Positions 337-25,460 of a stretch of 32,000 nucleotides of DNA are shown here, in pieces. The notes under the pieces were generated by a model, which searched no databases, had not been told where the DNA came from, and saw only the letters and a program-made list of their open reading frames with translations. A program made the translations under genes and the position numbers. This DNA is from an archaeon. Lineage in GTDB: Archaea > Undinarchaeota > CAZHTU01 > JBDRCC01. The stretch's first letter is position 1. Each line of letters starts with the position of its first letter. The stretch spans positions 22,539-54,538 of the forward strand of contig JBDRCC010000007.1 in assembly GCA_043822065.1 (NCBI GenBank), read 5' to 3'.

Positions 337-442
337 TATTTTATCCCCCCATTTAAACCAATCTTCTCATTTTATAAATTACTTGTGCATATACTTCCTA
401 TACGCTTAGGTTCACGCCCAATAGTCAAATGAAAGGTTCCGG

Positions 443-468
443 GCTGGTTCAAATCCGGCCGAGGGGAC
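443..468 (+). repeat. Partial copy (3' portion) of the 37-nt intergenic repeat family
   Basis: GCTGGTTCAAATCCGGCCGAGGGGAC aligns with the 3' 25 nt of the copy at 1577-1613 (GCAGTTGAAACCCGGCAGAGGGGAC) with one indel and about 4 mismatches. It lies upstream of acr3. Confidence 0.55.
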
Positions 469-527
469 TCCTACAAAAAGAAAACTTATTTATTGAGCAA
501 AAACTCTACTGAGCCTTAGTATAACCT

Positions 528-1571
528 ATGACCGAAAAACGAGAGCTTAAATTTTTCGAGAAGTACCTGACCCTCTGGGTTTCGTTGTGTATATTAGCCG
601 GCATCCTGTTCGGGAAGTTTTTCCCGGCAGTTGCAACTTCGCTGAACGGCATCCAATATGCCAACGTATCAATACCCATAGCTGTCCTGCTGTTCTTTAT
701 GATATACCCCATAATGGTCCAGATAGACATTCGGGACGTCATAAAGGCAGGCAAAACGCCGAAGCCGGTTGCCCTCACGCTTTTCGTAAATTGGGCAATA
801 AAGCCCTTCTCAATGGCATTCATTGCATGGCTTTTCATGAGCCGGATTTGGGCTGGTCTGATTCCTGGGGCAATGGCGACGGAATACACCGCCGGCATGA
901 TTCTCCTTGGTGTGGCGCCCTGCACTGCAATGGTTCTCGTCTGGAGCTACCTCTCAAAGGGGAACATGGGCCATACGCTCGTCATGGTCGCAATAAACTC
1001 GCTCACGATGCTCGTTCTTTATGCGCCAATTGCGGGCTTCCTGCTCGGCCTTACAGACATACCCGTCCCGTGGCTGACGATTGCATTATCCGTTGCCGTT
1101 TACGTTGGCGTCCCTCTATTTGCGGGATACTTCTCCAGGAAGGAGCTGTTGCGGAGGTGGGGGCTTACATGGTTTGAGGAATCTTTTGCCCCCAAGCTAA
1201 GGACAGTTTCCATAGTTGCACTCCTCATTACCCTTATCACACTGTTCAGCCTGCAGGGCGGCGTTATCCTTGCACAGCCATTCGTAATAGCTCTCATCGC
1301 AATACCTCTTTTTATCCAGACGATGTTCATTTTCGGCCTTAGCTATTGGCTGTCACAAAAAATAGGGCTTACTTATGCCGATGCTGCCCCAACGTCCCAG
1401 ATAGGTGCAAGCAACCACTTTGAGGTTGCGATTGCAATGGCAGTCATGCTTTTTGGGATAGACTCCGGAGCGGCGCTGGCGACCGTAGTTGGAGTTTTAA
1501 TCGAGGTCCCTGTTATGCTGGGTTTAGTCAAGATATGCCTTGCAACTCAGCATTGGTTTCGCTCTTCTTAA
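528..1571 (+). CDS. acr3: ACR3-family arsenite efflux transporter
   Basis: 347-aa polytopic membrane protein. Motifs [47 protein letters not shown] and [19 protein letters not shown] are characteristic of ACR3 within the BART superfamily. Confidence 0.85.
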
Positions 1572-1576
1572 AAAGA

Positions 1577-1613
1577 GGGATTACAATTGCAGTTGAAACC
1601 CGGCAGAGGGGAC
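1577..1613 (+). repeat. 37-nt intergenic repeat, copy 1
   Basis: GGGATTACAATTGCAGTTGAAACCCGGCAGAGGGGAC. It starts 5 nt after the acr3 stop codon and ends directly against the TATA box of the next gene. Confidence 0.8.
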
Positions 1614-1616
1614 CTA

Positions 1617-1623
1617 TTTATAT
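1617..1623 (+). promoter_or_regulatory. TATA box (TTTATAT) for the 1645 gene
   Basis: AT-rich box centred about 26 nt upstream of the ATG at 1645, consistent with a leaderless archaeal transcript. Confidence 0.5.
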
Positions 1624-1644
1624 TTCTACGTTTTAACACATGCC

Positions 1645-2157
1645 ATGGCTTCCAAAATAAAACTCTATGCCAAAGGCATTGAATCGTATCTCATCTCAAC
1701 TGTAATCCTTGGCAATTTTATGATGCTCTCATGGATTGCACTGGGGACCATGGCTACCCGGTTCTTCAGCCCCCTGATTGCTCAGGCTTATCTGGCCATT
1801 GCTTTGATAATGGTCTACGTTGTCTTGCGGAAGCTCGTATGCACAAACTGCTATTACTATGGCAAGTGGTGCCCTACTGGCTGGGGAAAACTGTCTGCAC
1901 GTCTATTCAAGAAAGGAAAGGTAGACGAATTTGCAAACAGCATTGGCGTAAAACTCGCCCCGGCTACATATGGGCTGTTGAGTCTGGTTCCGATTGTACT
2001 AATTATTATTTCACTATGGCAAGCCTTTACATCCTCTAAGGTTGTTGTACTGGTGCTGCTGCTTTTGGTTTCAGCTTACAGTGGCTCAATAGGCAGAAAG
2101 AAGTCCTGCGCGAACTGCAAGATGCGATTAATTTGTCCTGGCTGTGCTGTGAAGTAA
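1645..2157 (+). CDS. Cysteine-rich integral membrane protein, function unknown
   Basis: 170 aa with about 4 hydrophobic segments. Two Cys clusters sit in non-membrane segments: CTNCYYYGKWC (C-x2-C-x6-C) and CANCKMRLICPGC (C-x2-C-x5-C-x2-C). I do not recognise a family. Confidence 0.6.
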   Translation: MASKIKLYAKGIESYLISTVILGNFMMLSWIALGTMATRFFSPLIAQAYLAIALIMVYVVLRKLVCTNCYYYGKWCPTGWGKLSARLFKKGKVDEFANSIGVKLAPATYGLLSLVPIVLIIISLWQAFTSSKVVVLVLLLLVSAYSGSIGRKKSCANCKMRLICPGCAVK

Positions 2158-2161
2158 TTCA

Positions 2162-2198
2162 GGGATTACACTTGCAGTTGAAATCTGGCAGAGGGGAT
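2162..2198 (+). repeat. 37-nt intergenic repeat, copy 2
   Basis: GGGATTACACTTGCAGTTGAAATCTGGCAGAGGGGAT. By my count 33/37 positions match copy 1. It starts 4 nt after the stop of the 1645-2157 gene. Confidence 0.8.
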
Positions 2199-2248
2199 GT
2201 TTCCATTTTGTACGATAAAAATATAACCTGCTCTTCTTTACCTCTATC

Positions 2249-3412
2249 ATGCCGCAGAACAGAAAGCTTGGGGGGCTTGGAAGAAACATACTTTTGCTCG
2301 CCATTGTCAGCTTCTTAGCTGATGTCAGCAGTGAGATGATAACGCCGATTCTCCCGCTGTTCATTCTTACACTTGGCGGGACAGGCGTAGCAATTGGCCT
2401 GATAGGTGGCGTAGGGGACTCCATTGCAAGCTTCCTGAAGGTTCTGTCCGGCTACTGGTCCGATAGAATTGGGAAGCGCAAGCCGCTGGTAGTAGCCGGA
2501 TACTTTACCTCTGCCTGCGCTAAATTGTTTTTTCCATTCGCAGCGGTGTGGCAACACATACTACTACTAAGGTCTGCCGAAAGAGTCGGCAAGGGCGTCC
2601 GCACTGCACCACGTGACGCAATAATAGCACTGTCTTCGGACAGAAAGAAACTTGGCAAGGGGTTTGGCTTTAATCGGGCAGCAGACTCTGCAGGGGCCGT
2701 AGTTGGGACTTCCCTCGCGTTCATCTTTTTTTGGTTTCTTCATTTCGATTTGCAGAAAATCTTCCTGATAGCTGCGTTTGTCGCCTTCCTGGCCTTGGTG
2801 CCGCTTCATTTTGTCAAGGAGAAAAATTCAATGCCCACTAAGTCAAACCTGAAAATTAGTCTGTCGTCCCTTCCGCCGAAACTTCAGTCGTTTATCTTTA
2901 TTTCAGCCCTCTTCTCATTTGCCGATTTCACTTACATGTTCTTTATTTTAAGGGCTGGCGAGTCATTCTCTGGAACTGCAGCGGTTGCAGTGCCGATACT
3001 GCTGTATCTCCTGTTCAATATGACTTACGCTTCTTTCTCAGTCAAAACCGGTGACCTCTCTGACAGAATAGGGAGGACGAAAGTAATACGCGCAGGTTAC
3101 CTCTTGTTTGTGGCAGTTTGCATTGGTTTTGTCTTTCTTGAGTCACTGCCTTGCCTTGTGCTCCTCTTCCTCGCCTATGGCATTGTCTACGCCCTGGTGG
3201 ACGGAACTCAGCGCGCATATGTCTCGGACCTCAGCAGCGAAGGACTCAAGGGGACAGCACTTGGCACATTCCACGCCGCAAACGGATTCGCAGACCTACC
3301 GAGCGGGATTATCGCAGGTGTCCTATGGCAGTACGTAAGCCACGAAGCGACATTCGTTTTCGGGGCGTTTTTCGCCCTGTGCGCTTTCATATTGTTAAGG
3401 AACCAAAATTAA
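2249..3412 (+). CDS. MFS transporter
   Basis: 387 aa with about 12 TM segments. It has the MFS loop motif GYWSDRIGKRKP and a RSAERVGKGVRTAPRDAII motif between TM segments. Confidence 0.8.
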   Translation: MPQNRKLGGLGRNILLLAIVSFLADVSSEMITPILPLFILTLGGTGVAIGLIGGVGDSIASFLKVLSGYWSDRIGKRKPLVVAGYFTSACAKLFFPFAAVWQHILLLRSAERVGKGVRTAPRDAIIALSSDRKKLGKGFGFNRAADSAGAVVGTSLAFIFFWFLHFDLQKIFLIAAFVAFLALVPLHFVKEKNSMPTKSNLKISLSSLPPKLQSFIFISALFSFADFTYMFFILRAGESFSGTAAVAVPILLYLLFNMTYASFSVKTGDLSDRIGRTKVIRAGYLLFVAVCIGFVFLESLPCLVLLFLAYGIVYALVDGTQRAYVSDLSSEGLKGTALGTFHAANGFADLPSGIIAGVLWQYVSHEATFVFGAFFALCAFILLRNQN

Positions 3413-3413
3413 T

Positions 3414-3450
3414 GGAATTATAACTGTAGTTGAAACACAGCCGAGGGCAC
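3414..3450 (+). repeat. 37-nt intergenic repeat, copy 3 (more diverged)
   Basis: GGAATTATAACTGTAGTTGAAACACAGCCGAGGGCAC. By my count 29/37 positions match copy 1. It starts 1 nt after the MFS stop codon. Confidence 0.7.
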
Positions 3451-3478
3451 GCCCCCTCTATTTGGCAATACATAACCA

Positions 3479-3484
3479 TATAAA
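3479..3484 (+). promoter_or_regulatory. TATA box (CCATATAAAC context) of zinc-ribbon gene 1
   Basis: The same motif, with the same 20-nt spacing to the inverted repeat, occurs at the paralog (4448-4453). Confidence 0.55.
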
Positions 3485-3539
3485 CTTCCTCTGCCAAGAA
3501 GTACTGCCCCATTATTCATCGGGGCAGGAATAAAACATA

Positions 3540-3752
3540 ATGGCATACGAAAACAACTTCCAAGGTGGAAGTGGAAACTTTAACAGGCCGCCGCGCGAGA
3601 TGCACTCCGTTGACATAAATGGCAACGAGCTCGTTTGCGCAGACTGCAAAACAACTGGTTTCCAGCTACCTTTCAAGGCAGACGGCAGCAGGCCGGTTTA
3701 CTGCTCGGATTGTAACAGGAATCACAGACCACCACAGAGAGACAGGTTTTAG
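3540..3752 (+). CDS. Small CxxC...CxxC zinc-ribbon protein with Gly/Arg/Asn-rich N-terminus
   Basis: 70 aa. The core REMH...VCADCKTTGFQLPFKADGSRPVYCSDC resembles the 'CxxC-x17-CxxC' type zinc-ribbon seen as stand-alone proteins and helicase tails (REMH, VPF-P, RPVYC signatures). It has a paralog at 4513-4743. Confidence 0.7.
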   Translation: MAYENNFQGGSGNFNRPPREMHSVDINGNELVCADCKTTGFQLPFKADGSRPVYCSDCNRNHRPPQRDRF

Positions 3753-3926
3753 TAAATAGCGCATAGAAAAATTAGCACATATTGATTTTTCTTAAAGAGA
3801 TTTACTGAATAGCTACGCCTCTATAGGGGTGGGACTGAAAACAGATTGTACCTTTAGTTGGCCCTCAGGCGAGGGCTCAACTATTTATTTAACTCGTTCT
3901 CGAATTTTTCATACTACTCAGAGTAG

Positions 3927-4403
3927 ACCTGCTCCGCCGGCTTTCCGCGGATGTTCCACTCCTTGCTCTTTGGGGACGAAGCGGGTGCTTATACTATTGA
4001 AGTATATTTGATTGCAGCCTCACGCATGGGGCTTCGTAAACGCTTTGTGGTTTAGTATCCTCACCAGGACAATCAGCGGCAGTTCGACCCGCTCTATGAG
4101 AAATACGGCACGCCGATAATCATGATGACGCCATTCCAGAGCTGCGAGTACGGCGCAAAGCAGGACTGGTTCGAGCCGATGATGCTCCAGCCGGACGTCA
4201 AGCAGGACCTGGTTGCGCAGGCAGACATGTACGAGGCGTTCTTCTCAGCGACAATCGACGAGCCATGGTTTGCCGGGCTCATGACCTGGGGCTACTACTT
4301 TGAGGACGAGTTCAACACTAAGGAGTATGCCTCAGAAAAGTCCTCGACCGTCAGGAACAAGCCGGCGGCGCAGATTGTCAAAAAAATGGTTCGAGCAGAT
4401 TGA
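3927..4403 (+). pseudogene. Probable remnant of a TIM-barrel glycoside-hydrolase-like gene (C-terminal part only)
   Basis: The frame is open over 4056-4403, with the first ATG at 4122. It encodes ...FDPLYEKYGTPIIMMTPFQSCEYGAKQDWFEP...QADMYEAFFSATIDEPWFAGLMTWGYYFEDEF, which looks like the nucleophile-strand/C-terminal region of a GH-type barrel. The same frame continues upstream to 3927 across a single in-frame TAG (4053-4055). No N-terminal half or promoter is evident. Confidence 0.35.
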
Positions 4404-4447
4404 GTAATCTCCCTCCCTTCAGCCAATACATGGGGGATACAAATCTA

Positions 4448-4453
4448 TATAAA
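4448..4453 (+). promoter_or_regulatory. TATA box (CTATATAAAC context) of zinc-ribbon gene 2
   Basis: Paralogous to 3479-3484, with identical spacing to the downstream inverted repeat. Confidence 0.55.
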
Positions 4454-4512
4454 CCCCTATTGACAAATAAAACTGTCCTCACATACTGTTGAGGGCAGGA
4501 AAAATAACTAAA

Positions 4513-4743
4513 ATGGATCGTGAAAACAGATTCGGTGGACGCGGAAGAAGTAACTTTGACAGGCCTCGCGGAAATTTCGACAGGCCGGATAGGGAAATGC
4601 ACACAACGTATGACGACGGCACTCCGACGGTTTGCGCAGACTGCAAAGCAACCGGCTTTGGCGTACCCTTCCAGCCAAAAAAGGACAGGGACCTCTACTG
4701 CCAAAACTGCATAAAAAACCACCAGAAGCCAAGAAGGTTCTAA
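4513..4743 (+). CDS. Small CxxC...CxxC zinc-ribbon protein with RGG-like N-terminus (paralog of 3540-3752)
   Basis: MDRENRFGGRGRSNFDRPRGNFDRPDREMH...VCADCKATGFGVPFQPKKDRDLYCQNC. The track start at 4489 is a TTG inside the conserved inverted repeat. The ATG at 4513 matches the position of the paralog's start after GGCAGGAA-A-rich. Confidence 0.7.
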   Translation: MDRENRFGGRGRSNFDRPRGNFDRPDREMHTTYDDGTPTVCADCKATGFGVPFQPKKDRDLYCQNCIKNHQKPRRF

Positions 4744-4821
4744 CAAGTAGACCCTAGAAAAGATTAAACTTTTTGATTTTTTCTTAGAGCTTTACTTAGT
4801 GTAAGATTTGCACAAATATAT

Positions 4822-4852
4822 CCCGGCAGTTTTGCCGGGTACAATTTTTTTT
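4822..4852. terminator. Hairpin plus T-tract between convergent genes
   Basis: CCCGGCA-GTTT-TGCCGGG (perfect 7-bp stem, 4822-4839) is followed by TACAATTTTTTTT. It lies between the + gene ending at 4743 and the - gene ending at 4869. Confidence 0.5.
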
Positions 4853-4868
4853 ATCAACAATAGGTTAG

Positions 4869-5480
4869 CTATCCCTTTTTTCTTAAATACTCAAGAAGCC
4901 CTGGCGTGAGGACCGGCTTGCCCTCGAACACAGGTATTGCGTAATCAAGGGTTATGCTCTCATTCTCGCTGAACTCAATCTCCGGCTTGTTTGAGAGCAG
5001 TACATCCTCCAGCTTTGCCCCGTCCGCAACCTTCTTCGCCATGAAGCATGCCCCGTCGATGCTAAGCTGGTACTGGCCGATTGAGCGCGGGATTCCGTTG
5101 AGCTTGGACGTTATGAGGTCCTTTGTCCTCCCGCGGGGCATGGCGTCGCCAAGTATGCCCCCGATTACAATCTTGTCTGCAAGCTTGAAGTCATCCGGGC
5201 TGAGGAGCTTATCCGTCTGAGGGTCAAGCACGATAACCTTTTCGCCTTTCAGGAAATCTGCCGCGCTCTCCTTGCGGAAATGCCCTATTTTTCCTATGGC
5301 CCGCTGGTCTTTCTCCAGGCTGACGTTGGTGAACAGCAGCTCACCGCCGGCAATCTTCCCGCAGTGCCTGTACTCGAGCTCCATCCACTCGCTTACGCCC
5401 CGTTCGCAGTGCTCGACAATGAAAAGCATACTGAAATTATCTCGCCTTGGTTTAAGTCCTTGCGGGTGCGGCCGCCGCAT
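4869..5480 (-). CDS. SPOUT-fold SAM-dependent methyltransferase, SFM1/DUF431 family
   Basis: MLFIVEHCERGVSEWMELEY..., VIVLDP, IVIGGILGDAMPRGRTKDL, QLSIDGA and EGKPVLTPGLLEYLRK match my memory of yeast Sfm1 (MKYIIEHMEEGFSEW..., GGILGD-PPR-RT, EGKPILPEG). The start is uncertain. ATG 5480 fits a near-leaderless start about 26-30 nt from the TATA at 5507-5514. The family-like N-terminus begins at ATG 5429. The longest ORF (5507) overlaps the TATA box. Confidence 0.7.
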   Translation of the reverse strand: MRRPHPQGLKPRRDNFSMLFIVEHCERGVSEWMELEYRHCGKIAGGELLFTNVSLEKDQRAIGKIGHFRKESAADFLKGEKVIVLDPQTDKLLSPDDFKLADKIVIGGILGDAMPRGRTKDLITSKLNGIPRSIGQYQLSIDGACFMAKKVADGAKLEDVLLSNKPEIEFSENESITLDYAIPVFEGKPVLTPGLLEYLRKKG

Positions 5481-5506
5481 TATGCCAAATTCCAAGCTTG
5501 GTGACA

Positions 5507-5514
5507 TTTTTATA
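5507..5514. promoter_or_regulatory. Shared TATA element (TTTTTATA / TATAAAAA) in a divergent intergenic region
   Basis: This is the only AT-rich box in the 5481-5535 spacer. It is centred about 26 nt from ATG 5536 (+) and about 30 nt from ATG 5480 (-). Confidence 0.4.
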
Positions 5515-5535
5515 CTGCCTTGGATTCAATAGATT

Positions 5536-6183
5536 ATGGCGCTTTACAACACGACCCAGATAGCCCCGCTCATTGCGGAGAACTTCTCAACTGCTGATGC
5601 AATTGCCGCGTCGCGCCCGCTTGCAGCTTATGTTTTTGCAATAGCAATATACGCAATCTTCATCTTCAAGTTCTACCGGTTCCTTGGACGGAAAGACGTC
5701 TTTTCCATCGACCTGGCGAAACACTCCAACACCCGATTTGCGGGCGCAAAGAAGTTCTTCAGCGTAGTTTTTTATGTACTCAAGTACCTGATACTCTTCC
5801 CGCTTGTCGTCTTCGTATGGTTTGCATTCCTCGCCCTGATGCTGATATTCCTGGCGAAGAGCGGCACAGTTGAGCAAATAATGCTAATCTCAGTTTCGCT
5901 TGTCGGCGCCGTTCGCGTCTGCGCCTACTACGACGAGGACCTATCGAAGGACTTGGCGAAGCTGCTGCCGCTGGCTCTGCTTGGCGTTTTCATCGTTGAC
6001 CGGTCGTACTTCAACTTCAGCAATTCGGTACTGACCCTCTTGTCCCTTCCGGACTACTGGAAGCTCCTGAGCTACTACATGGTCTTCATAGTTTCGCTTG
6101 AGTTTGTGCTCCGGGTGCTGTCCGGCACCGCAGGCATGCTGTTTGGCCGTGGCGAAAAAAAGCAGCAAAACATAAAGGATTAA
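5536..6183 (+). CDS. Integral membrane protein, unknown function
   Basis: 215 aa with about 5 hydrophobic segments and a plausible leaderless start. No family recognised. Confidence 0.55.
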   Translation: MALYNTTQIAPLIAENFSTADAIAASRPLAAYVFAIAIYAIFIFKFYRFLGRKDVFSIDLAKHSNTRFAGAKKFFSVVFYVLKYLILFPLVVFVWFAFLALMLIFLAKSGTVEQIMLISVSLVGAVRVCAYYDEDLSKDLAKLLPLALLGVFIVDRSYFNFSNSVLTLLSLPDYWKLLSYYMVFIVSLEFVLRVLSGTAGMLFGRGEKKQQNIKD

Positions 6184-6207
6184 ATATTCCAGGGACAAAG
6201 GATAGCT

Positions 6208-6513
6208 ATGGCAATCGTGCTTTTTAACTCAGTAACGTTGGCCTTTTCCGTGCCAATCTTTGCCGGAGCCGCAGCAGGCTTCATACGGGCGTTTCTCGGC
6301 TACCTCAAGGCGCGCTACAAGAACGGCGAGGCATTCGTTGCAGGGAAATTCGTCCAGCCAATTATTTTTTCAGCAGGTGTCGGGGCCGCGATTGGGTACT
6401 ATATGTCGCAGGCAGATCCTTTATTCATAGGCGCGGTCGCAATCGCAGGCAGCACGCTAATTGACTCCATCGTATGGGTTTTTGTAGGGAAGAAAAAGCC
6501 GCAGGCCGATTAG
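6208..6513 (+). CDS. Small membrane protein, unknown function
   Basis: 101 aa with Gly/Ala-rich hydrophobic segments (FAGAAAGFIRAF, SAGVGAAIGYY, GAVAIAGSTLI) and a KKKPQAD tail. Confidence 0.5.
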   Translation: MAIVLFNSVTLAFSVPIFAGAAAGFIRAFLGYLKARYKNGEAFVAGKFVQPIIFSAGVGAAIGYYMSQADPLFIGAVAIAGSTLIDSIVWVFVGKKKPQAD

Positions 6514-6752
6514 TCAAGCAGCTTTAAGTCTTTGGCCATTCTCCAGGCGACGTACGCAGTCACAGGATAGAGTATCGCATACGAGCCTGCGTCCATGAAC
6601 CTGCTGCCTGAGCCGACATTGGTGCAGCCGGAACTGGCGAGAAGAAGAATAGGGAGGATGGTTTTTGTGGCAAGATGCCTCATCCTGGTGCGTAGCCCTG
6701 TGGCTTTTACCCCAGTACTAGACGCACATTGGGACGAAAGTTTTGAAACCAT
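6510..6752 (-). CDS. Putative small lipoprotein
   Basis: It contains MRHLATKTILPILLLASSGC, a positive n-region plus hydrophobic core plus lipobox-like LASSGC. A strong SD-like GGGGGGAG lies before ATG 6752. An alternative start at ATG 6683 would put the signal peptide at the N-terminus. Its stop overlaps the stop of the convergent gene (TTAG at 6510-6513). Confidence 0.4.
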   Translation of the reverse strand: MVSKLSSQCASSTGVKATGLRTRMRHLATKTILPILLLASSGCTNVGSGSRFMDAGSYAILYPVTAYVAWRMAKDLKLLD

Positions 6753-6949
6753 CTCCCCCCACTAGGTGTTGAAGATAGAGCATTCAACCCCTAATAACCT
6801 ATCATGGTCACATCCCTTTATAGATTTTTCGTGTTTTGCTTTTTTTATTGGAATATTTGTTTAAATATTGCCTATTTTTAGAAAAAATCCATAAAAACTG
6901 ATACTTTTTGAACGAATTCCAAAAAATACATACTTCCCCACCTCCGAAA

Positions 6950-6964
6950 CTGGAAATTTTACAG
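6950..6964. promoter_or_regulatory. Imperfect palindrome CTGGAAATTTTACAG (candidate Lrp-type operator, distal)
   Basis: It resembles the perfect palindrome 35 bp downstream. Both are followed by CATT. Confidence 0.35.
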
Positions 6965-6984
6965 CATTGCGTTCCTGCCGCATA

Positions 6985-6999
6985 CTGAAAAATTTTCAG
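6985..6999. promoter_or_regulatory. Perfect 7-1-7 palindrome CTGAAAA-A-TTTTCAG (candidate Lrp-type operator, proximal)
   Basis: 15-bp AT-centred palindrome ending 14 nt upstream of the TATAAA at 7014-7019 of the Lrp/AsnC gene. Its size and form match known archaeal Lrp-family sites. Confidence 0.45.
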
Positions 7000-7013
7000 C
7001 ATTATAGGAAAAA

Positions 7014-7019
7014 TATAAA
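7014..7019 (+). promoter_or_regulatory. TATA box of the Lrp/AsnC gene
   Basis: TATAAA centred about 24-26 nt upstream of ATG 7040. Confidence 0.5.
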
Positions 7020-7039
7020 TACCTTTCAGCCCTCCTGAT

Positions 7040-7522
7040 ATGGGGATTGGCTTGAAAATTACTGAACCTGACTTAAAACTCCTCTCCGAACTCCAGATTG
7101 ACGCAAAACAGCCCCTCAAGGTGCTGTCGAAAAAGCTCAAAGTCCCAGTCTCAACTCTGCACTCAAGGATAAGCAAGCTGGAGAAGGGGGGCGTGATACA
7201 AAAATATTCTGCTGTGCTTGACCCCCAAAAGCTGAACATGAACTTCACCGCCCTTGTGTTCTGCACCCTGCGGTTCCAAGACGCTGAGGAGAAGCCCATC
7301 ACAGTCGAAAAAATCCTTGATGAGCTTAAAAAAATTCCTGAAATCCAGTCAATCTTTTTAACCACCGGCCAGCGCGACCTCATTCTGAAGGTAAAAAGCC
7401 ACAAGGTCGAGGACGTGTCCTCAATCATAGCAAAGAAAATACGCTCAATCCGCGGCATAGAGCGGAGCGAGACTTATGTCTGCTTCAACGTAGTCAAGGA
7501 TTCGCTTGACCTGCCAATCTGA
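7040..7522 (+). CDS. Lrp/AsnC family transcriptional regulator
   Basis: N-terminal HTH (LDLKLLSELQIDAKQPLKVLSKKLKVPVSTLHSRISKLEKGGVIQKYSAVLDPQKL) followed by an RAM/ACT-like domain (TALVFCTL ... IQSIFLTTGQRDLILKV). Confidence 0.85.
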   Translation: MGIGLKITEPDLKLLSELQIDAKQPLKVLSKKLKVPVSTLHSRISKLEKGGVIQKYSAVLDPQKLNMNFTALVFCTLRFQDAEEKPITVEKILDELKKIPEIQSIFLTTGQRDLILKVKSHKVEDVSSIIAKKIRSIRGIERSETYVCFNVVKDSLDLPI

Positions 7523-7872
7523 TGATTGAAGAGGAGCATAGGCGCGCGGTTGAAAAATTGAAAAAGCTCTCAGCCGAAGGCGTGCCGATTCTTGCCGAAG
7601 GCATTCGGGACCTGAACCGCCTGAGGGCGATTGGCGTCGAGGGCGAAATAATCCTCATCCAGGGCAAGAGCATGCCGCGGCTGGTCCATGACCTCGGCGG
7701 CCTGAAGGCGCTGATAATCCTTACGGATTTTGACCGGACAGGCGCCCAGAAGTGCTCGCGGCTCAAGACGCTGCTTGAGGGATATGGGGTTAAGGTCAAC
7801 ACCGACCTGCGGCTGAAGATATTCAGCACAACCTTCTCAAAGCGGGTCGAAGAGCTTCACCTGCCAGAATAA
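7522..7872 (+). CDS. Small Toprim-domain protein (UPF0292-like)
   Basis: 116 aa with VPILAEGIRDLNRLRAIGV (the conserved Glu) and LIILTDFDRTGAQ (DxD), which are Toprim signatures. Its start overlaps the Lrp stop (TGATGA). Confidence 0.65.
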   Translation: MIEEEHRRAVEKLKKLSAEGVPILAEGIRDLNRLRAIGVEGEIILIQGKSMPRLVHDLGGLKALIILTDFDRTGAQKCSRLKTLLEGYGVKVNTDLRLKIFSTTFSKRVEELHLPE

Positions 7873-7904
7873 AGTATATCAAGCGCGTTGCACAATACTC
7901 TCGC

Positions 7905-8477
7905 ATGGCAACGTATTTTCCGCTTAACCTGAAGGCATGGAGAAACGACGAGTATGGATTTACTATCCGGATAGCCGTCCCTGCCGACTATGACGCGCTG
8001 GTAACTGCGTGGGCTGAAATCGAGGAGGGCCGGCGCTCCATTGCGCGCGTAAACATGCTCAAGGAGAGCATAGAGCGTGGCTGGGTTATAGTGGCCGAAG
8101 AACGCGGAGACATTTTTGGGTATTCAGATATAACCCCCATATATACGAAATATTCAGATTTCCCAGTCACCCACCTGGCAGTCAGCGGCGTTTCGCCGAG
8201 GGATGGCGGGAAATACCGCAAGACGGGGGTCCATGAAGTCATGAGCATTCTTAGGATTTTAGGGATACTTGGCAAGACCCAAACTGCATGTTCTTATGTG
8301 GACTCTGAGTCTCTCTTAAGCCGGCGGGAGGCCATTGCAAAAAAGCTTGGGATACCGCTTACCATTGTTAGAGGGGAAAATAACATCACCCTGAACTACG
8401 ACCTGACCTGCGACATCAAAAAAATAGAGAAAAAAATTCGTGAACACCTAACCTCCCTTAAGTGGCATGAGGCCTAA
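7905..8477 (+). CDS. Possible GNAT-like acetyltransferase-fold protein
   Basis: 190 aa. FTIRIAVPADYDALV and WVIVAEERGDIFGY resemble GNAT beta1/beta4 segments. The acetyl-CoA loop is not obvious, so this call is weak. Confidence 0.35.
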   Translation: MATYFPLNLKAWRNDEYGFTIRIAVPADYDALVTAWAEIEEGRRSIARVNMLKESIERGWVIVAEERGDIFGYSDITPIYTKYSDFPVTHLAVSGVSPRDGGKYRKTGVHEVMSILRILGILGKTQTACSYVDSESLLSRREAIAKKLGIPLTIVRGENNITLNYDLTCDIKKIEKKIREHLTSLKWHEA

Positions 8478-8522
8478 TCTGCAATAAATTTATTAACTGC
8501 CAGACCTATCTTGTTGTATAGG

Positions 8523-8978
8523 ATGGCGAAGCTAGAACTCAAAAAAGCACCTCAGGGTCTGCAGATGCTGCTGGGTGACATAATCAGGTCAATACCCGAG
8601 TTCGGCCACATCGACCCCTCCCGAGTCCACCTTATAGTGTCAAACTCGGACTCGCGGGCGCTTGCACTCTGCCATGAGATGTCAAGGAGGATACAGTTCG
8701 CATTAGGCGTCCCGCCGCACTACGTCATAGAGCTTGTGGAAAAACACTGGAGTGGCTTGGACGCTGAAATGAGGGCAAAAGTCCTGATACACGAGCTATA
8801 CCACATCCCAAAGACCTTTTCCGGGCATCTCAGGAGCCATGACCACAGGAAGGGCTTCGGGAGGTACTCCCGCAGGCTCGAGGAGGACCTTTACCGCGAT
8901 TACCTGCACAAACACCCCCAAAAGTCCAGGGAAGAGGCGCTTGCGCTCGTCAAAACCCTCACTTTTTCCGGTTTTTAG
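8523..8978 (+). CDS. Predicted HExxH metallopeptidase-like protein (COG4900-like)
   Basis: It contains VLIHELYHIPKTFSGHLRSHDH (HExxH plus downstream His residues). ATG 8523 is preferred over the track's TTG 8511 because the AT-rich palindromic box AATAAATTTATT (8483-8494) predicts a TSS near 8517. Confidence 0.5.
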   Translation: MAKLELKKAPQGLQMLLGDIIRSIPEFGHIDPSRVHLIVSNSDSRALALCHEMSRRIQFALGVPPHYVIELVEKHWSGLDAEMRAKVLIHELYHIPKTFSGHLRSHDHRKGFGRYSRRLEEDLYRDYLHKHPQKSREEALALVKTLTFSGF

Positions 8979-9002
8979 CAGGAATAAGCCTAAATCCAAA
9001 CC

Positions 9003-9010
9003 TATATATA
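9003..9010 (+). promoter_or_regulatory. TATA box (TATATATA) of the 5S rRNA gene
   Basis: Centred about 27 nt upstream of the inferred 5S 5' end. Confidence 0.55.
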
Positions 9011-9033
9011 GTATCTTATAGTGATTATCGAAG

Positions 9034-9153
9034 TTAGCGGTCATAGCAGAGGGGTCACACCTGGTCTCATTCCGAACCCAGAAGTTAAGCCCTCTAGCGA
9101 TTTTGATTGTACTATCTTGCGAGAGCAGATGGGAACTCAAAGACGCCGCTAGC
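9034..9153 (+). rRNA. rrf: 5S ribosomal RNA
   Basis: TTAGCGGTCATAGCAGAGGGGTCACACCTGGTCTCATTCCGAACCCAGAAGTTAAGCCCTCTAGCG...GGGAACTCAAAGACGCCGCTAGC. It has the conserved CCGAAC and AGTTAAGC blocks, and terminal helix I pairs TAGCGG with CCGCTA. The ends are accurate to a few nt. Confidence 0.9.
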
Positions 9154-9244
9154 ACTTCCACATAAGAAAGCCGGTGAGTGCCAATTGGCGAGACCCGAAA
9201 AAACAACAAATACATTCTAATTATAGTCCTTGCTGAGCTAGTGC

Positions 9245-9252
9245 TATAATTA
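9245..9252 (+). promoter_or_regulatory. TATA box (TATAATTA) upstream of tRNA-Asp
   Basis: About 29 nt upstream of tRNA position 1. It forms the right arm of a 10-bp inverted repeat (9217-9226 / 9244-9253). Confidence 0.45.
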
Positions 9253-9277
9253 GGGGGGTCACTCGGCTGAGGCGAAT

Positions 9278-9350
9278 GCCCGGATGGTGTAGTGGCCTAG
9301 CATAGAGCCCTGTCGAGGCTCTGACGCGGATTCAAATTCCGCTCCGGGCG
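9278..9350 (+). tRNA. tRNA-Asp (GTC)
   Basis: Acceptor GCCCGGA/TCCGGGC, anticodon stem GAGCC/GGCTC with loop CTGTCGA, and T-arm GCGGA-TTCAAAT-TCCGC. No encoded CCA. Confidence 0.9.
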
Positions 9351-9355
9351 CTCTC

Positions 9356-9429
9356 GGGCTCGTAACTCAGGTTGGCAGAGTGCTTGGCTTTTAACCAAGA
9401 AGTCGCGGGTTCAAATCCCGTCGGGCCCA
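9356..9429 (+). tRNA. tRNA-Lys (TTT)
   Basis: Acceptor GGGCTCG/CGGGCCC (one G-U), anticodon stem CTTGG/CCAAG with loop CTTTTAA, and T-arm GCGGG-TTCAAAT-CCCGT. It begins 5 nt after tRNA-Asp. Confidence 0.9.
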
Positions 9430-9461
9430 TTCCCGTTCGCGGGCCGCAAAGAGAAAACAAG

Positions 9462-10940
9462 ATGCTGAAAAAAGAACCAAATCCCATCCTCGTGGCGTAC
9501 TTTAGGAGCAACTCACTGGTTGAGCACCATGTTTCTTCGTTTAATGACTTCTTAGACCGCGGGCTCCAGAGCGTAATTGACGAAATCAAGGTAATCGAGC
9601 CGGAGCTAGAAGACTATTACATAAAGCTCGGAAAGATATTCGTCGACGAGCCGGTTTCGAAGGAGGCGGACGGAAGCACCAGGAAAATCTACCCGAATGA
9701 GGCAAGGCTCAGGGACAGGACCTATTCCGCGCCGATAACCCTTGAAATGACTGCTGTTGAGGGCGGGGAGGAGCAGGAGACCATGAAAGTGGTCATTGGC
9801 AAGCTCCCAATCATGCTCAAGTCAAAGAAGTGCCTCCTGGCCGGGATGACCGATGACGAGCTCATCCGTGTCGGGGAAGACCCGCAGGACCCGGGCGGCT
9901 ACTTCATCATAAACGGGACCGAGAGGGTTTTAGTCCTTGTTGAGGACCTCGCATCAAACCGGATTCTTGCCGAGCACAACAACACGACCAACACAAACGT
10001 CGCAAAGATATTCTCCGCGCGCGGCTGGTACAGGCGCCCCTGCACCCTTGAAGTCCGCGGCGACTCGTCACTCAAATTCCTGTTCCCGCCCCTGGCCAAG
10101 CCGGTCCCAGTCTTCATAGTCCTGAAGGCACTCGGCCTCAAGACAGACCGCGAGCTGTTCGACTCTGTAACGAAGGACGCTGCAGTCCAGCAGGAGCTCC
10201 TCGTTGCGAACGAGGAGGCGGCAGAAGTCGTGACCGTCTCTGATGCTCTTGACTTCATCGGCAAGCGCGTGGCAGTCGGGCAGCAGAGGGAGCAGAGGAT
10301 TGAGCGCGCAGAGCAGGTCCTGGACAAGTACCTCCTCCCGCACGTCGGAATGGAGCGCGCAGACAGGGCGGCAAAGGCATATTTCATAGGCAAGATGGTC
10401 GAGAAGCTCCTCATGTTCAATATTGGAAAGATTCCAGCAGACGACAAGGACCACTACGCAAACAAGCGCCTCAGGCTCGCAGGCGAGCTGATGGAGGACG
10501 TATTCCGCGTCGCGTTCCGGGGGCTCGTCGCAAACGCAGTATACTCACTTGAAAAGGCAGCCCGCAGGGACCGCAAGGTCGCAATAAGGACTGCAATCCG
10601 ATCATCGCTTCTGACCGAGCGCATAGGCCACGCAATGGCGACAGGCGCGTGGGTCGGAGGGCGGCAGGGAATCTCCCAGCACCTCGACAGGCTCAACCAC
10701 CTATCGACGCTTTCACACCTCAGGCGCGTAAGATCGCTCCTTTCTAGGACCCAGCCGCACTTCGAGGCAAGGGACTTGCACGCAACCCACTGGGGCAAGA
10801 TTTGCCCGAACGAAACTCCGGAAGGCTCAAACATCGGGCTTGTCAAAAACCTCGCGCTTCTGACCGAGATAACAAATCAAGTGGACGAGAAGCCAATTGA
10901 AGACGCCCTCATAGAGCTTGGCGTGCGGAGGGCATGGTAA
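9462..10940 (+). CDS. rpoB2: DNA-directed RNA polymerase subunit B'' (N-terminal part of split RpoB)
   Basis: MLKKEPNPILVAYFRSNSLVEHHVSSFNDFLDRGLQ..., GYFIINGTERVLV and HWGKICPNETPEGSNIGLVKNLAL. The track ORF start at 9372 lies inside tRNA-Lys, so the first ATG after the tRNA (9462) is used. Confidence 0.95.
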   Translation: MLKKEPNPILVAYFRSNSLVEHHVSSFNDFLDRGLQSVIDEIKVIEPELEDYYIKLGKIFVDEPVSKEADGSTRKIYPNEARLRDRTYSAPITLEMTAVEGGEEQETMKVVIGKLPIMLKSKKCLLAGMTDDELIRVGEDPQDPGGYFIINGTERVLVLVEDLASNRILAEHNNTTNTNVAKIFSARGWYRRPCTLEVRGDSSLKFLFPPLAKPVPVFIVLKALGLKTDRELFDSVTKDAAVQQELLVANEEAAEVVTVSDALDFIGKRVAVGQQREQRIERAEQVLDKYLLPHVGMERADRAAKAYFIGKMVEKLLMFNIGKIPADDKDHYANKRLRLAGELMEDVFRVAFRGLVANAVYSLEKAARRDRKVAIRTAIRSSLLTERIGHAMATGAWVGGRQGISQHLDRLNHLSTLSHLRRVRSLLSRTQPHFEARDLHATHWGKICPNETPEGSNIGLVKNLALLTEITNQVDEKPIEDALIELGVRRAW

Positions 10941-12742
10941 TGGCAAGCATATTCGTGAACGGCAAGTTTGTCGGACAGCACGAAAAGCCAGCCCAGCTGC
11001 TGAAGTCCGTAAAGGAACTGAGGCGCGATGGCAAGCTTCCGGGCGGAATCAGCATCGCACACTACGCTGACCTGGACGAGATACAGATAAACACAGATGC
11101 GGGCAGGATACGGCGCCCTCTGCTTGTCGTCACCGGCGGCAAGTCGCCAATCACCCAGGAGATAAACGACAAGCTCAAGAGCGGCCAGCTGACAATCGCA
11201 GAGCTCATAAGGCGTGGAATACTCGAGTACCTTGACGCAGAAGAAGAGGAGAACGCCTACATCGCCCTTCACGCGAGGGACCTGACAAGCGAGCACACCC
11301 ACCTTGAAATCCACCCAGAGACAATCTTCGGCATAAGCACAGGGATAATCCCTTACCTTGAGCACAACCAGGCGTCAAGGGACAACCTCGGCGCTAACAT
11401 GTCCAAGCAGGCGCTCGGGATGTACGCCGCGAACTTCCACCACAGGGCAGACACCCAGCGGCACATCCTCCATTACCCGCAGGCGCCGCTCGTGACAACC
11501 GAGATAGGCGAGGTTCTGAAGGTATGGAACAGGCCGTCCGGGCACAACGCAGTTGTGGCAGTCCTTTCCTACGAGGGCTACAACATGCAGGACGCACTCA
11601 TACTCAACAAATCATCCTGTGACCGGGGATTCGCGCGCTCTACCTTCTACCGCACCTACGCGACCGAGAAGATAAGGTATGCTGGCGGGCAGGAAGATGA
11701 CATAATGACCCCTCCTGAGGACGTCTCAGGCTACAAATCGGAGCGGGCGTACCGGTTCCTTGACGAGGACGGAATAATCACGCCAGAATGCGACATTGAG
11801 GCTGGCGACGTGCTCATTGGAAAGACCTCCCCTCCGCGGTTCCTTGAGAGCCTTGAGGAGTTCGGCGCCGCAGTCACGAAGAGGCGCGAGAGCAGCGAAG
11901 TGGTCAAGCACGGCGAGAGGGGCACGGTCGACATAGTCGTCCTGACAGAGACCGAGGACGGAAACAAGCAGGTCAAGGTAAAGCTCCGCGACCTCCGGGT
12001 CCCAGAGCTCGGTGACAAGTTTGCGTCCCGCCACGGGCAGAAGGGCACAGTGGGGCTTCTTGTAAACTCAGAGGACATGCCTTTCACAGAAAACGGCGTA
12101 GTCCCAGATGTCATAATCAACCCGCACGCCATCCCGAGCAGGATGACCGTTGCGCAGCTGCTCGAGACCATCGCCGGCAAGGTCGGCGCCATGGAGGGCA
12201 GGTACATCGACGCAACCGCGTTCTCAGGCGAGCCCGAGGCTGACCTTAGGAAGGCGCTCGAAAAGCTCGGCTTCAGGGACAACGGCAAGGAAGTCATGTA
12301 CAACGGGATAACCGGCGAGAAGTACGAGGTTGAGATATTCATTGGCGTCGTCTACTACCAGAAGCTAAAGCACATGGTCGCAGACAAGATACGCGCAAGG
12401 TCAAGGGGCCCCGTGCAGGTTCTCACCCGCCAGCCTACAGAGGGCAAAGCCCGCGAGGGAGGGCTCAGGGTCGGAGAAATGGAAAAGGACTGCCTTGTCG
12501 CCCACGGCACTGCCATGCTGCTCAAGGAGCGGCTGCTCGAGGAGTCAGACAAGACGCAGGTTCCAATCTGCCTGTCATGCGGGATGACCGCGATATACGA
12601 CCGGTACCGCGACATAAAATACTGCCCGCTCTGCGGAGAGGACACAAACGTCCAGCTCGTGGAGATGTCATACGCATTCAAGCTCCTCCTGGACGAGCTC
12701 AAGTCAATGTGCACGTACCCAAGGCTGGAGATAGGTGATTAG
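10934..12742 (+). CDS. rpoB1: DNA-directed RNA polymerase subunit B' (C-terminal part of split RpoB)
   Basis: GDKFASRHGQKGTVG, VINPHAIPSRMTVAQLLE, GGLRVGEMEKDCLVAHG and a C-terminal Cys4 ribbon (CLSCG...CPLCG). It overlaps B'' by 7 nt (ATGGTAATG). Confidence 0.95.
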   Translation: MVMASIFVNGKFVGQHEKPAQLLKSVKELRRDGKLPGGISIAHYADLDEIQINTDAGRIRRPLLVVTGGKSPITQEINDKLKSGQLTIAELIRRGILEYLDAEEEENAYIALHARDLTSEHTHLEIHPETIFGISTGIIPYLEHNQASRDNLGANMSKQALGMYAANFHHRADTQRHILHYPQAPLVTTEIGEVLKVWNRPSGHNAVVAVLSYEGYNMQDALILNKSSCDRGFARSTFYRTYATEKIRYAGGQEDDIMTPPEDVSGYKSERAYRFLDEDGIITPECDIEAGDVLIGKTSPPRFLESLEEFGAAVTKRRESSEVVKHGERGTVDIVVLTETEDGNKQVKVKLRDLRVPELGDKFASRHGQKGTVGLLVNSEDMPFTENGVVPDVIINPHAIPSRMTVAQLLETIAGKVGAMEGRYIDATAFSGEPEADLRKALEKLGFRDNGKEVMYNGITGEKYEVEIFIGVVYYQKLKHMVADKIRARSRGPVQVLTRQPTEGKAREGGLRVGEMEKDCLVAHGTAMLLKERLLEESDKTQVPICLSCGMTAIYDRYRDIKYCPLCGEDTNVQLVEMSYAFKLLLDELKSMCTYPRLEIGD

Positions 12743-15256: not shown

Positions 15257-16530
15257 AGGCAGACTTTGAGACAATAAAGGCGAGGCTTCCTCCGAAGATA
15301 CTCTCCCAGGTAGAGGCGCACATAGCCGACAACAAGATTTCAGAGTCCAAGCAGGGTGACATTTACTCAAAAGTCTACGAGCTATACAAGTCATACCGCG
15401 TCCAGCCGGGCGAAGCGGTTGGCACCATTGCTGCCCAGAGCATAGGCGAGCCTGGCACGCAGATGATGATGCGGACGAAGCACTACGCCGGGGTCGCGAT
15501 GGAAGTAACCAGGGGTCTGCCGAGGCTGATTGAGATATTCGATGCGCGCTCGATACCCTCAACGCCGAGCATGGAAATCCACCTCGAACCGGAAATGGCG
15601 AAGAGCGAGGAAAAGGCAAAAGGGTGCGCAAACAAAATAGTCCAATCCTCAGTCAACCAGCTTGCGAAGTCAATAGAGATAGACTTTGGCCAGGCAAGGG
15701 TCGTAGTCAAGTTCGACCAGAACATGCTCAAGGAGCGGGCCATAGATGTCCTCGACACCGTCAAGCACCTCAAGAACGAGCTGAGGCACAAAATCGGGAT
15801 AGAGGGCACCGAGGTTTACGTCCAGGCGAGAAAATCGTCCGCAGCGTCCCTTTATGCGCTCAGGGACAAAGTAAAGAACGCAAGGATTGCGGGCGTATCC
15901 GGAATCGAGCACGCGGTGCTCCAGGAAACCGGCGGCGAATTTATCATCTACACCAGGGGCTCAAACCTGAAGGACATACTAAACCTTGAATTCGTCTTGA
16001 AGGGCACGACAATCACAAACGACCTCTATCAGGTAGAAAAGGTCCTCGGCATTGAGGCGGCAAGGGCCACTATAATAAAAGAGGCGACCGAAACGCTTAG
16101 GGACGCGGGCTTGGTCGTCGACGCCAGGCACATCATGCTAGTCGCAGATGCCATGTGCGCAACAGGCTCTATACAAGCTATTGGAAGGCACGGTGTTTCA
16201 GGCGATAAGGGCTCAGTCCTTGCGAGGGCAAGCTTTGAGGAGACAGTAAAGCACCTGCTACTTGCCAGCATATACGGCGAGTCAGACTATCTTAGGGGAG
16301 TCGTCGAGAACGTCATCGTCGGGCAGGTCGTCCCAGTAGGGACCGGTCTGCCGAAGCTCGTAATGAAGTCGGGCGACGAATCAATCAAGACAATCCAGCC
16401 AGGCAGGCAAGCTCCAGCCCAGGCGCCGGCAGAGGAAGCCCCTCCTGCGGAAGAAGAAAAGCCAGAATCTGGCGAAGAAGAGCCAGAGCAAAAAGCTAAA
16501 AAAGGCAAAGGTACAAAGTCAAAGTCCTGA
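15253..16530 (+). CDS. rpoA2: DNA-directed RNA polymerase subunit A'' (with a low-complexity C-terminal tail)
   Basis: [23 protein letters not shown] (trigger loop), [13 protein letters not shown] and [14 protein letters not shown] overlap with rpoA1. Confidence 0.95.
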
Positions 16531-25316: not shown

Positions 25317-25404
25317 GCCGAGGTGGCAGAATCTGGCTAATGCGCTGGTCTTGAGAACCAGTGGGCCTTTCGGGTCCGTATGAGTTCAAATCTCATCCTC
25401 GGCG
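25317..25404 (+). tRNA. tRNA-Ser (TGA)
   Basis: Acceptor GCCGAGG/CCTCGGC, anticodon stem CTGGT/ACCAG with loop CTTGAGA, a long variable arm (GGGCC-TTTC-GGGTCC) and T-arm ATGAG-TTCAAAT-CTCAT. Confidence 0.9.
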
Positions 25405-25430
25405 CTTTTCATTCAGAATCAATCCTAAGG

Positions 25431-25438
25431 TATATATA
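25431..25438 (+). promoter_or_regulatory. TATA box (TATATATA) for the 25461 gene
   Basis: Centred about 26 nt upstream of ATG 25461. Confidence 0.5.
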
Positions 25439-25460
25439 TCGCGCGCATTTACACAGGGGC

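Follow-up and report, generated by a model that had tools for sequence, protein, structure and literature searches.

Archaeal integrases mostly target tRNA genes (PMC8371274), and in the tycheposon islands of Prochlorococcus partial tRNA copies separate elements that have integrated serially (10.1101/2020.12.28.424599). By what route DPANN archaea gain new genes is still an open question, as their tiny genomes show few recognisable mobile elements. We analysed a 32,000-nucleotide stretch of the undinarchaeotal contig JBDRCC010000007.1 (assembly GCA_043822065.1, positions 22,539 to 54,538), referred to here as the window, in which a 37-nucleotide (nt) direct repeat punctuates an array of transporter and membrane-protein genes. 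The feature is real: it is most likely a set of recombination scars, derived from tRNA-Tyr, that bound independently gained or lost gene modules. In the reading that we favour, and consider probable, the repeats are att-type direct repeats, decayed 3' ends of tRNA-Tyr(GTA) left by the serial site-specific insertion of small promoter-carrying modules.

Elements that integrate serially at tRNA genes, such as genomic islands and the SSV-type and pNOB8-type 'gene capture' of archaea, resemble this locus in several respects. In both, the direct repeats correspond to the 3' part of a tRNA and stop where its gene ends, variable content lies within conserved flanks, and the distal scars appear older and are more decayed; an intact tRNA marks one end of such arrays, as it does in the relatives of this locus and as is predicted for the window's own array. 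The locus differs from them in that no integrase gene or fragment was found in the reading frames scanned, in that its modules are single genes of 0.6-1.25 kb lying flush against the scars, and in that the element-side arm of the repeat is conserved among modules with unrelated genes. Our Pfam scan of the window's open reading frames (ORFs) took in the transporter modules, a number of small genes, 13 genes of ribosomal, translation or housekeeping function and three ORFs that have no Pfam match. We take the four large ORFs at 9372-16530 for RNA polymerase subunits, on the strength of one BLASTP match and of gene order.

The tycheposons of Prochlorococcus (10.1101/2020.12.28.424599) offer a second point of comparison, in which repeated integration at one tRNA pushes earlier insertions deeper, partial tRNA copies lie between cargo blocks, the cargo is adaptive (transport, resistance) and the host genome is streamlined. 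Tycheposons are, however, defined by their own tyrosine recombinase and replication modules, none of which was found in the array or its flanks here, and they are bacterial, with multi-gene cargo blocks; the likeness lies in the island architecture. Integrons and clusters of attC sites lacking integron-integrases (CALINs) share with this locus the ordered array of one-gene cassettes, each ending in a recombination-site-like repeat, with the newest cassette beside the insertion point, and, like a CALIN, the array may lack the recombinase (PMC9668308). In contrast to these, the repeat here is derived from a tRNA and has neither the attC hairpin nor its core sites, the insertion point is a tRNA gene instead of an attI beside intI, and the cassettes carry their own promoters. 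Cis-mobilizable elements (CIMEs), known from the accretion of streptococcal integrative and conjugative elements (ICEs), resemble the locus in being att-flanked, in lacking an integrase and in occupying a tRNA-type target, and they can be mobilised in trans by the integrase of a related element. They are decay products of ICEs or of integrative and mobilizable elements, usually several kb long and bacterial, whereas no accreted helper element is visible at the locus described here.

Three 37-nt copies of the repeat lie in direct orientation on the forward strand, at 1577-1613 (copy 1), 2162-2198 (copy 2) and 3414-3450 (copy 3). An initial annotation of the window had given these positions and sequences correctly, and its identity counts of 33/37 for copy 2 and 29/37 for copy 3 hold on recount. 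A fourth copy, copy 0, occupies 431-468 on the same strand. It had been noticed at 443-468 and labelled partial; it is present, but the label does not fit, as this is the most tRNA-like copy and its tRNA-like sequence reaches left to about 431. A repeat search of the window returned one 37-nt family, with three copies at 100, 92 and 76% identity to the reference, and an additional 25-nt family that takes in 447-471. A 21-nt core pattern, with at most three mismatches, matches the window three times against 0.01 expected by chance. When both strands of the 32 kb were searched with a 22-nt pattern allowing up to five mismatches, the only matches were 446-467, 1591-1612, 2176-2197 and 3428-3449, all on the forward strand, and a profile search of the 32-kb window added no further copies. 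Because every match in the 32 kb is confined to the four array sites, the repeat is a local array and not a dispersed one. We set aside a reading as a miniature inverted-repeat transposable element or insertion sequence. A CRISPR array was also rejected: the 37-nt copies are spaced 585 and 1252 nt from start to start with whole genes between them, and there are no cas genes among the scanned window ORFs.

The initial annotation recognised the motif as no described element, but it is the T-arm and acceptor strand of a tRNA. The right-hand 22 nt of the repeat correspond to the T-loop, T-stem and acceptor strand of tRNA-Tyr. Copy 0 reads GCTGG TTCAAAT CCGGC CGAGGGG A, which is a canonical T-arm followed by the acceptor 3' strand and the discriminator, and over 443-468 it is identical (26/26) to the 3' end of an intron-containing tRNA-Tyr(GTA) gene on contig L001, from a Candidatus Undinarchaeota metagenome-assembled genome (MAG). 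Its T-arm is intact and is preceded by a variable-loop remnant with an insertion of 4-5 nt. When the copies are aligned from their right ends, the right 22 nt match tRNA-Tyr at 22/22 positions in copy 0 and at 19, 18 and 17 in copies 1, 2 and 3, while the two copies in L001 score 19 and 16; in both arrays the similarity to the tRNA drops with distance from it. Over the same 22 nt the cassette copies match one another at 13-19 positions, so that they resemble one another no more closely than they do the tRNA. The left 15 nt match the tRNA at only 1-3 positions, yet agree at 8-14 of 15 among five cassette copies that come from two genomes and have differing adjacent genes. The sequence of this element-side, or cassette, arm is GGGATTAYAAYTGCAGTT. 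On the right, similarity stops in all copies where the tRNA gene ends (GGGGAY), and a profile built from the cassette copies alone recovers genuine tRNA-Tyr 3' ends in L001 and in contigs L004, L005 and L007. The array thus bears a mark of att-site scars, in that its direct repeats share homology with the 3' portion of a tRNA gene and are oriented as that gene is.

None of the copies in the window appears to be a tRNA gene. At copy 0 no tRNA was called by ARAGORN or Rfam, and the window holds no tRNA-Tyr 5' exon (best match 22/36). A 'tRNA-Gly' with a 74-nt intron, proposed at 314-468 by ARAGORN at low threshold, is spurious; it overlaps the start of an ATP-cone gene and its D-arm is broken. 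We considered whether copy 0 might be the 3' half of a split tRNA. Its T-arm is perfect, but the variable region carries the 4-5 nt insertion and no 5' half lies within the window, and on the window sequence alone we do not adopt this reading. In copies 1-3, by direct reading, the T-stem is unpaired (2/5 pairs) and C56 is lost. No partial copies of other tRNA 3' ends (tRNA-Asp, tRNA-Lys, tRNA-Ser) were found in the window.

Contig L001 also carries the closest relative of the Cys-rich membrane protein encoded in the array (78% identical), and the two loci can be compared module by module. In L001 a complete tRNA-Tyr(GTA) gene with a 34-nt intron (9863-9969; ARAGORN with intron detection) lies directly upstream of the Cys-rich orthologue, and partial copies in direct orientation follow that gene at 10536-10558 (87%) and then at 11759-11781 (74%). 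The order there is tRNA-Tyr, Cys-rich gene, copy, amino-acid kinase gene on the reverse strand, more decayed copy, zinc-ribbon gene. The frame of the array, from tRNA-Tyr (predicted in the genome of the window) to the same zinc-ribbon gene, is common to both genomes, and within it the window holds an ATP-cone gene (reverse strand), acr3, the Cys-rich gene and a major facilitator superfamily (MFS) gene, as against the Cys-rich and amino-acid kinase genes of L001, whose array lacks the MFS module. The similarity of the shared Cys-rich modules ends at the GGGGAY of the repeats, and the sequence from the last repeat through the zinc-ribbon gene is homologous between the two. The promoter and 5' region of the Cys-rich gene are conserved in both genomes, even though the gene comes after the tRNA in L001 and after the acr3 repeat in the window. 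A comparison of gene-plus-repeat units across relatives had been proposed in the initial annotation, and it shows that the units differ between the window and L001 within conserved flanks. Inter-repeat content that varies among relatives inside conserved flanks is a further mark of att scars.

The head of the window's array can be placed by synteny. A gene for a 466-aa surface protein precedes tRNA-Tyr in L001, and distant homologues of it precede tRNA-Tyr in L004 and in contig L017. The source MAG encodes a homologue of this protein that is 67% identical (ABH829_01540 / MFH1786319), and its ACR3 and Cys-rich proteins are MFH1786321 and ABH829_01560 / MFH1786322, respectively. Four locus-tag steps against three protein-accession steps imply that one coding sequence, the ATP-cone gene, and one non-coding feature lie between the 466-aa gene and acr3. 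We infer that this feature is most likely a tRNA-Tyr gene just left of the window; an intact tRNA-Tyr is present at the array end in the relatives L001, L007 and L017. The array would then read 466-aa gene, tRNA-Tyr, ATP-cone gene (reverse strand), copy 0, acr3, copy 1, Cys-rich gene, copy 2, MFS gene, copy 3, zinc-ribbon gene.

We suggest that each insertion regenerates the tRNA and displaces the earlier junction outward, leaving the newest module beside the tRNA. Each scar would be a hybrid, with its left 15-19 nt contributed by the incoming DNA (the element-side att arm) and its right ~20 nt by the resident tRNA end, and the crossover would fall near the T-loop. Recombination was presumably carried out by a tyrosine integrase acting in trans, because none is encoded in the array, and the modules may still be mobile today. 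The gradient of decay fits insertion that always takes place at the tRNA, as older junctions then lie further off. The repeats themselves are probably functionless in the mRNAs that contain them. The units may have moved as single-gene circles or may be the trimmed remains of larger elements, and both possibilities lie within this reading. Of the roles that the initial annotation had proposed, that of a recombination site or scar delimiting acquired cassettes is borne out by the tRNA-Tyr homology, by the real tRNA that heads the L001 array and by the differing units within conserved flanks, while its proposals of a 3'-untranslated region (3'-UTR) RNA element and of a shared operator are not.

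Several observations weigh against serial insertion at tRNA-Tyr. No integrase or recombinase domain was found in the scanned window ORFs, from which the four large ORFs at 9372-16530 were left out, and precomputed Pfam annotation shows no recombinase families in the 10 kb upstream of the L001 tRNA. An integrase gene or remnant beside the inserted DNA, another mark of att scars, was thus absent from the window ORFs scanned, from these 10 kb of L001 and from the insert in L017 described below. Such small cassettes, with one gene and no recombinase, are not what tRNA-targeted integration usually yields, and the left arm is conserved across units with unrelated genes. Copies 1-3 also share bases that the tRNA does not have (TTGAAA in place of TTCAAA, and a T-stem shorter by one base); independent decay does not predict these shared differences, which need either a common element-side arm or gene conversion. 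Moreover, the cassette-type repeat is carried by two genomes only, and the head of the window's array, with its predicted tRNA-Tyr, falls outside the window.

The conserved left arm leaves room for a dedicated integron-like system, an explanation that we regard as possible but clearly less probable. In such a system a recombinase of the host or of a helper would act, where tRNA-Tyr ends, on single-gene circles bearing a conserved 37-nt site that mimics the 3' half of this tRNA; the 37-nt site would be the analogue of attC and the tRNA end that of attI, and cassettes could be inserted, excised and reordered. The left 15 nt fit such a system, being unlike the tRNA yet alike in five cassettes whose genes differ and which come from two genomes. 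So do the compactness of the units (promoter, one ORF, repeat), which hold genes in either orientation, the different neighbours of the shared Cys-rich unit in the window and in L001, and the fact that the arrays have no integrase, so that any recombinase must act in trans. However, no recombinase was found, the evidence comprises two genomes and five cassette copies only, no free or alternative cassette junction was seen, and scans of the GTDB species representatives, JGI metagenomes and IMG/VR gave no further copies. Differential loss from an ancestral array accounts equally well for the different neighbours.

The shared non-tRNA bases are also relevant to a model that dispenses with a site-specific recombinase. 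The repeats would have arisen once or a few times, and the modules would since have been exchanged, lost and homogenised by homologous recombination or gene conversion between short repeats, for example after uptake of DNA from relatives. The window copies share the derived TTGAAA, which is absent from the tRNA and from L001, as gene conversion would give; no integrase was found in the scanned window ORFs or upstream in L001; and there are documented cases in archaea of tandemly integrated elements undergoing homologous recombination with one another (PMC8371274). We nevertheless consider this model rather unlikely. It leaves unexplained the first duplication of a tRNA 3' end around unrelated genes, repeats of 37 nt that are 57-89% identical are a poor substrate, and the right edges of all copies coincide with the end of the tRNA gene, as those of att sites do.

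If the repeats are scars of serial insertion at tRNA-Tyr, the locus presents a concrete route for gene acquisition in DPANN archaea, in which tRNA-Tyr serves as a docking site and resistance and transport genes, some of them common with bacteria, are stacked one module at a time. Should the cassette-side arm turn out to function in recombination, the locus would represent an integron-like system that captures genes by mimicking a tRNA, and the integron-like explanation, if true, would make it a second, independently evolved cassette-capture platform, unrelated to IntI/attC. If the arm has no such function, the array nonetheless preserves a clean and datable history of genes captured in series. 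The locus also calls for caution, since in archaeal MAGs a short repeat that follows a stop codon may be a recombination scar of tRNA origin instead of an RNA element.

The position of the repeats relative to genes might also suggest regulation. Every copy sits 32-90 nt upstream of a start codon, just before a TATA-like box, and acr3 and the MFS transporter are a plausible co-regulated pair, so that the 37-mer could be a shared protein-binding site placed upstream of promoters to co-regulate arsenic and transport genes. As the initial annotation had observed, though, the distance from copy to TATA-like box varies (in our reading about 3, 16-20 and 27 nt; each downstream gene has its own box by direct reading). 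The repeat has no dyad symmetry, and ORF scans revealed no ArsR-type regulator encoded nearby. In L001, moreover, one copy adjoins the amino-acid kinase gene, and the copy upstream of the Cys-rich gene is the functional tRNA gene itself, which makes a shared operator, including the binding site proposed in the initial annotation, improbable.

The same annotation had stressed the other side of the repeat, and it is correct that the full copies begin 1-5 nt after a stop codon (gaps of 5, 4 and 1 nt after ORF ends at 1571, 2157 and 3412). In the forward modules the repeat is probably transcribed as part of the 3' UTR and could be an RNA element there, whether as a terminator, as a signal for processing or stability, or as the origin of a 3'-derived small RNA. 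We consider this very improbable. Its position does not depend on the 3' end of an upstream gene, as the copy at 11744-11780 in L001 adjoins the 5' end of a reverse-oriented gene and not a stop codon. The T-runs reported after the copies are present, but they are 3-4 nt long and lie inside the AT-rich promoter of the next gene, and are therefore weak evidence for termination. An RNAalifold consensus of the five copies contains 3 base pairs at -1.5 kcal/mol, so that the conserved pairing for which a covariance test had been proposed is not seen. Whether folded as RNA or as single-stranded DNA of either strand, single copies are no more stable than shuffled sequences (z from -1.7 to +1.5). Rfam gives no match up to E = 10, and the T-stem is unpaired in copies 1-3. 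The apparent anchoring to stop codons is not inherent in the element but a consequence of compact cassette boundaries, as a unit in forward orientation requires a promoter on the left but nothing on the right.

The layout is that of genes each followed by a repeat, recurring in one orientation, and this invites comparison with a canonical integron or CALIN in which the repeats would be attC sites used by IntI. Such arrays occur in archaeal MAGs, DPANN lineages included, and archaeal attC sites retain the bacterial hairpin structure (PMC9668308). At this locus, no RYYYAAC or GTTRRRY core sites were found in windows of 160-200 nt around any copy, and neither strand forms an imperfect hairpin (z from -1.7 to +0.8 as single-stranded DNA). 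Typical attC sites are about 55-140 nt long, and the repeats here are 37 nt. There is no intI among the scanned window ORFs, each gene has its own TATA-like box and the repeat is homologous to a tRNA end. We therefore reject membership of a canonical integron, to which we assign only a negligible probability.

Repeats of the tRNA-Tyr 3' end recur in other archaea, which supports the reading as serial insertion at this tRNA. In L017, from a distant relative, a perfect 21/21 repeat of the tRNA-Tyr 3' end and its flank lies 2.16 kb downstream of the gene, and the insert between them holds a PQQ-type beta-propeller gene and two small ORFs, in none of which was an integrase-domain match found. The tRNA-Tyr(GTA) gene of L017 (11385-11556) has two introns, one after the anticodon and one in the T-loop, and was missed by ARAGORN even with intron detection. 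The T-loop intron is inside the stretch duplicated as the att-like repeat, and it could affect use of the site for integration. At 582-714 of L007, an archaeal contig rich in AT (30% GC), the 3' end of the tRNA-Tyr gene and its flank recur 100 nt downstream as a 33-nt copy (82%); with no gene in the intervening 100 nt, this pair looks like a minimal scar.

No repeat was found in L004, from a distant relative. The interval from tRNA-Tyr to the tRNA-Asp and RNA polymerase genes is 0.7 kb in that contig (7955-8635), compared with about 8.8 kb in the window (431-9278), so that further genes past the repeat-bounded array may have been inserted too. Among them are genes for an SFM1-like methyltransferase, an Lrp/AsnC regulator, a phage-metallopeptidase-like protein and several ORFs that belong to no family, and no repeats mark them. 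Downstream of the zinc-ribbon gene of contig L022, from a third relative, at 365-405, is a T-arm-like hairpin, GTGCAGCTCAAATCCTGCTAAAGGGTGCGACTGCAC, with a weak profile match (E 0.25); it may be another tRNA-derived remnant, or unrelated.

The cassette-type repeat was not found beyond the two genomes in scans of GTDB species representatives, JGI metagenomes and IMG/VR, and the IMG/VR scans revealed no element-borne attP. The single match to the cassette-type pattern among the GTDB species representatives, in a Paracoccaceae genome, is due to chance. The JGI scan recovered true tRNA-Tyr genes in L004, L005 and L007; the other JGI matches were rejected, those in L006 and L009 (high-GC bacteria) and in L011 (inside a coding region) as chance or unrelated, and those in L008 and L010 as a ribosome-binding site followed by ATG. 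Of the IMG/VR matches, L003 is an intron-containing tRNA-Tyr in an AT-rich contig, and L021 contains the left arm alone, inside a coding region and without the GAGGGGA part. Protein searches yielded no further close relatives of the flanking genes. The 44-aa protein P0130, which represents the 90%-identity cluster holding the MFS protein, comes from contigs (L019, L020) that look like mammalian repeat DNA; it is unrelated, and we attribute it to a clustering artefact.

The composition of the modules sets them apart from their surroundings. The GC content at third codon positions (GC3) is 0.40-0.58 in module genes compared with 0.63-0.76 in core genes, and the Cys-rich gene is 60-68% identical to homologues in Cloacimonadota, Dehalococcoidia, Patescibacteria and other phyla, with archaea and many bacterial groups among them. 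The low GC3 and this identity across phyla both fit horizontal acquisition. The homologues in other phyla (L012-L015) occur in DUF3795 contexts (L012-L014) or in Hachiman-like contexts (HamA and a helicase), and no repeats were found beside them. The protein itself, which is 170 aa long and matches no Pfam or NCBIfam family, has CxxC motifs near both ends of its soluble parts. It belongs to an uncharacterised and widely transferred family, possibly concerned with the handling of metals or metalloids. A group II intron predicted inside its gene scored 16 bits against a gathering score of 34 and is a chance match.

Within the window, the array opens on the reverse strand with the 5' part of the ATP-cone gene (1-336; Pfam ATP-cone, E 1.1e-09), which runs off the left end and has a GC3 of 0.40 against the core-gene range; it would be the tRNA-proximal module. 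Copy 0, a pseudo-tRNA-Tyr 3' fragment, follows at 431-468, and all further features of the array lie on the forward strand, their TATA-like boxes having been identified by direct reading. Module 1 (469-1576) comprises a TATA-like box at about 485-494 and acr3 at 528-1571 (TIGR00832, E 1.3e-114; Pfam SBF), and ends at copy 1, whose left 15 nt are of the cassette type. Module 2 (1614-2161) contains a TATA-like box at 1616-1623 and the Cys-rich membrane protein gene at 1645-2157, bounded by copy 2, the positional counterpart of 10521-10557 in L001. Module 3 (2199-3413) has a TATA-like box at about 2214-2225 and the MFS transporter gene at 2249-3412 (Pfam MFS_1, E 9.2e-35), and is closed by copy 3, the most distal and most decayed copy. 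The conserved right flank (3451-3752) consists of a promoter and 5' region and the zinc-ribbon gene (3540-3752; CxxC-x17-CxxC, Pfam zf_Tbcl_2), and is homologous to 11781-12122 of L001 and to L022.

The zinc-ribbon gene and the sequence downstream of it are duplicated in the window, at 3540-3752 and 4513-4743, about 1 kb apart and with 70-77% DNA identity. Both copies match Pfam zf_Tbcl_2, and the gene is single-copy in the available sequence of L001 and L022. Further along, at 9033-9429, tRNA-Asp and tRNA-Lys come after a solitary 5S rRNA gene, directly upstream of the ORFs read as RNA polymerase subunits, and the window contains no 16S or 23S rRNA genes. Directly after tRNA-Ser(TGA), a gene at 25317-26036 encodes bPH_2 and SHOCT domains and has a GC3 of 0.49, compared with about 0.65-0.70 in its neighbours; though no partial tRNA-Ser copy was found, it may be another tRNA-adjacent insertion.

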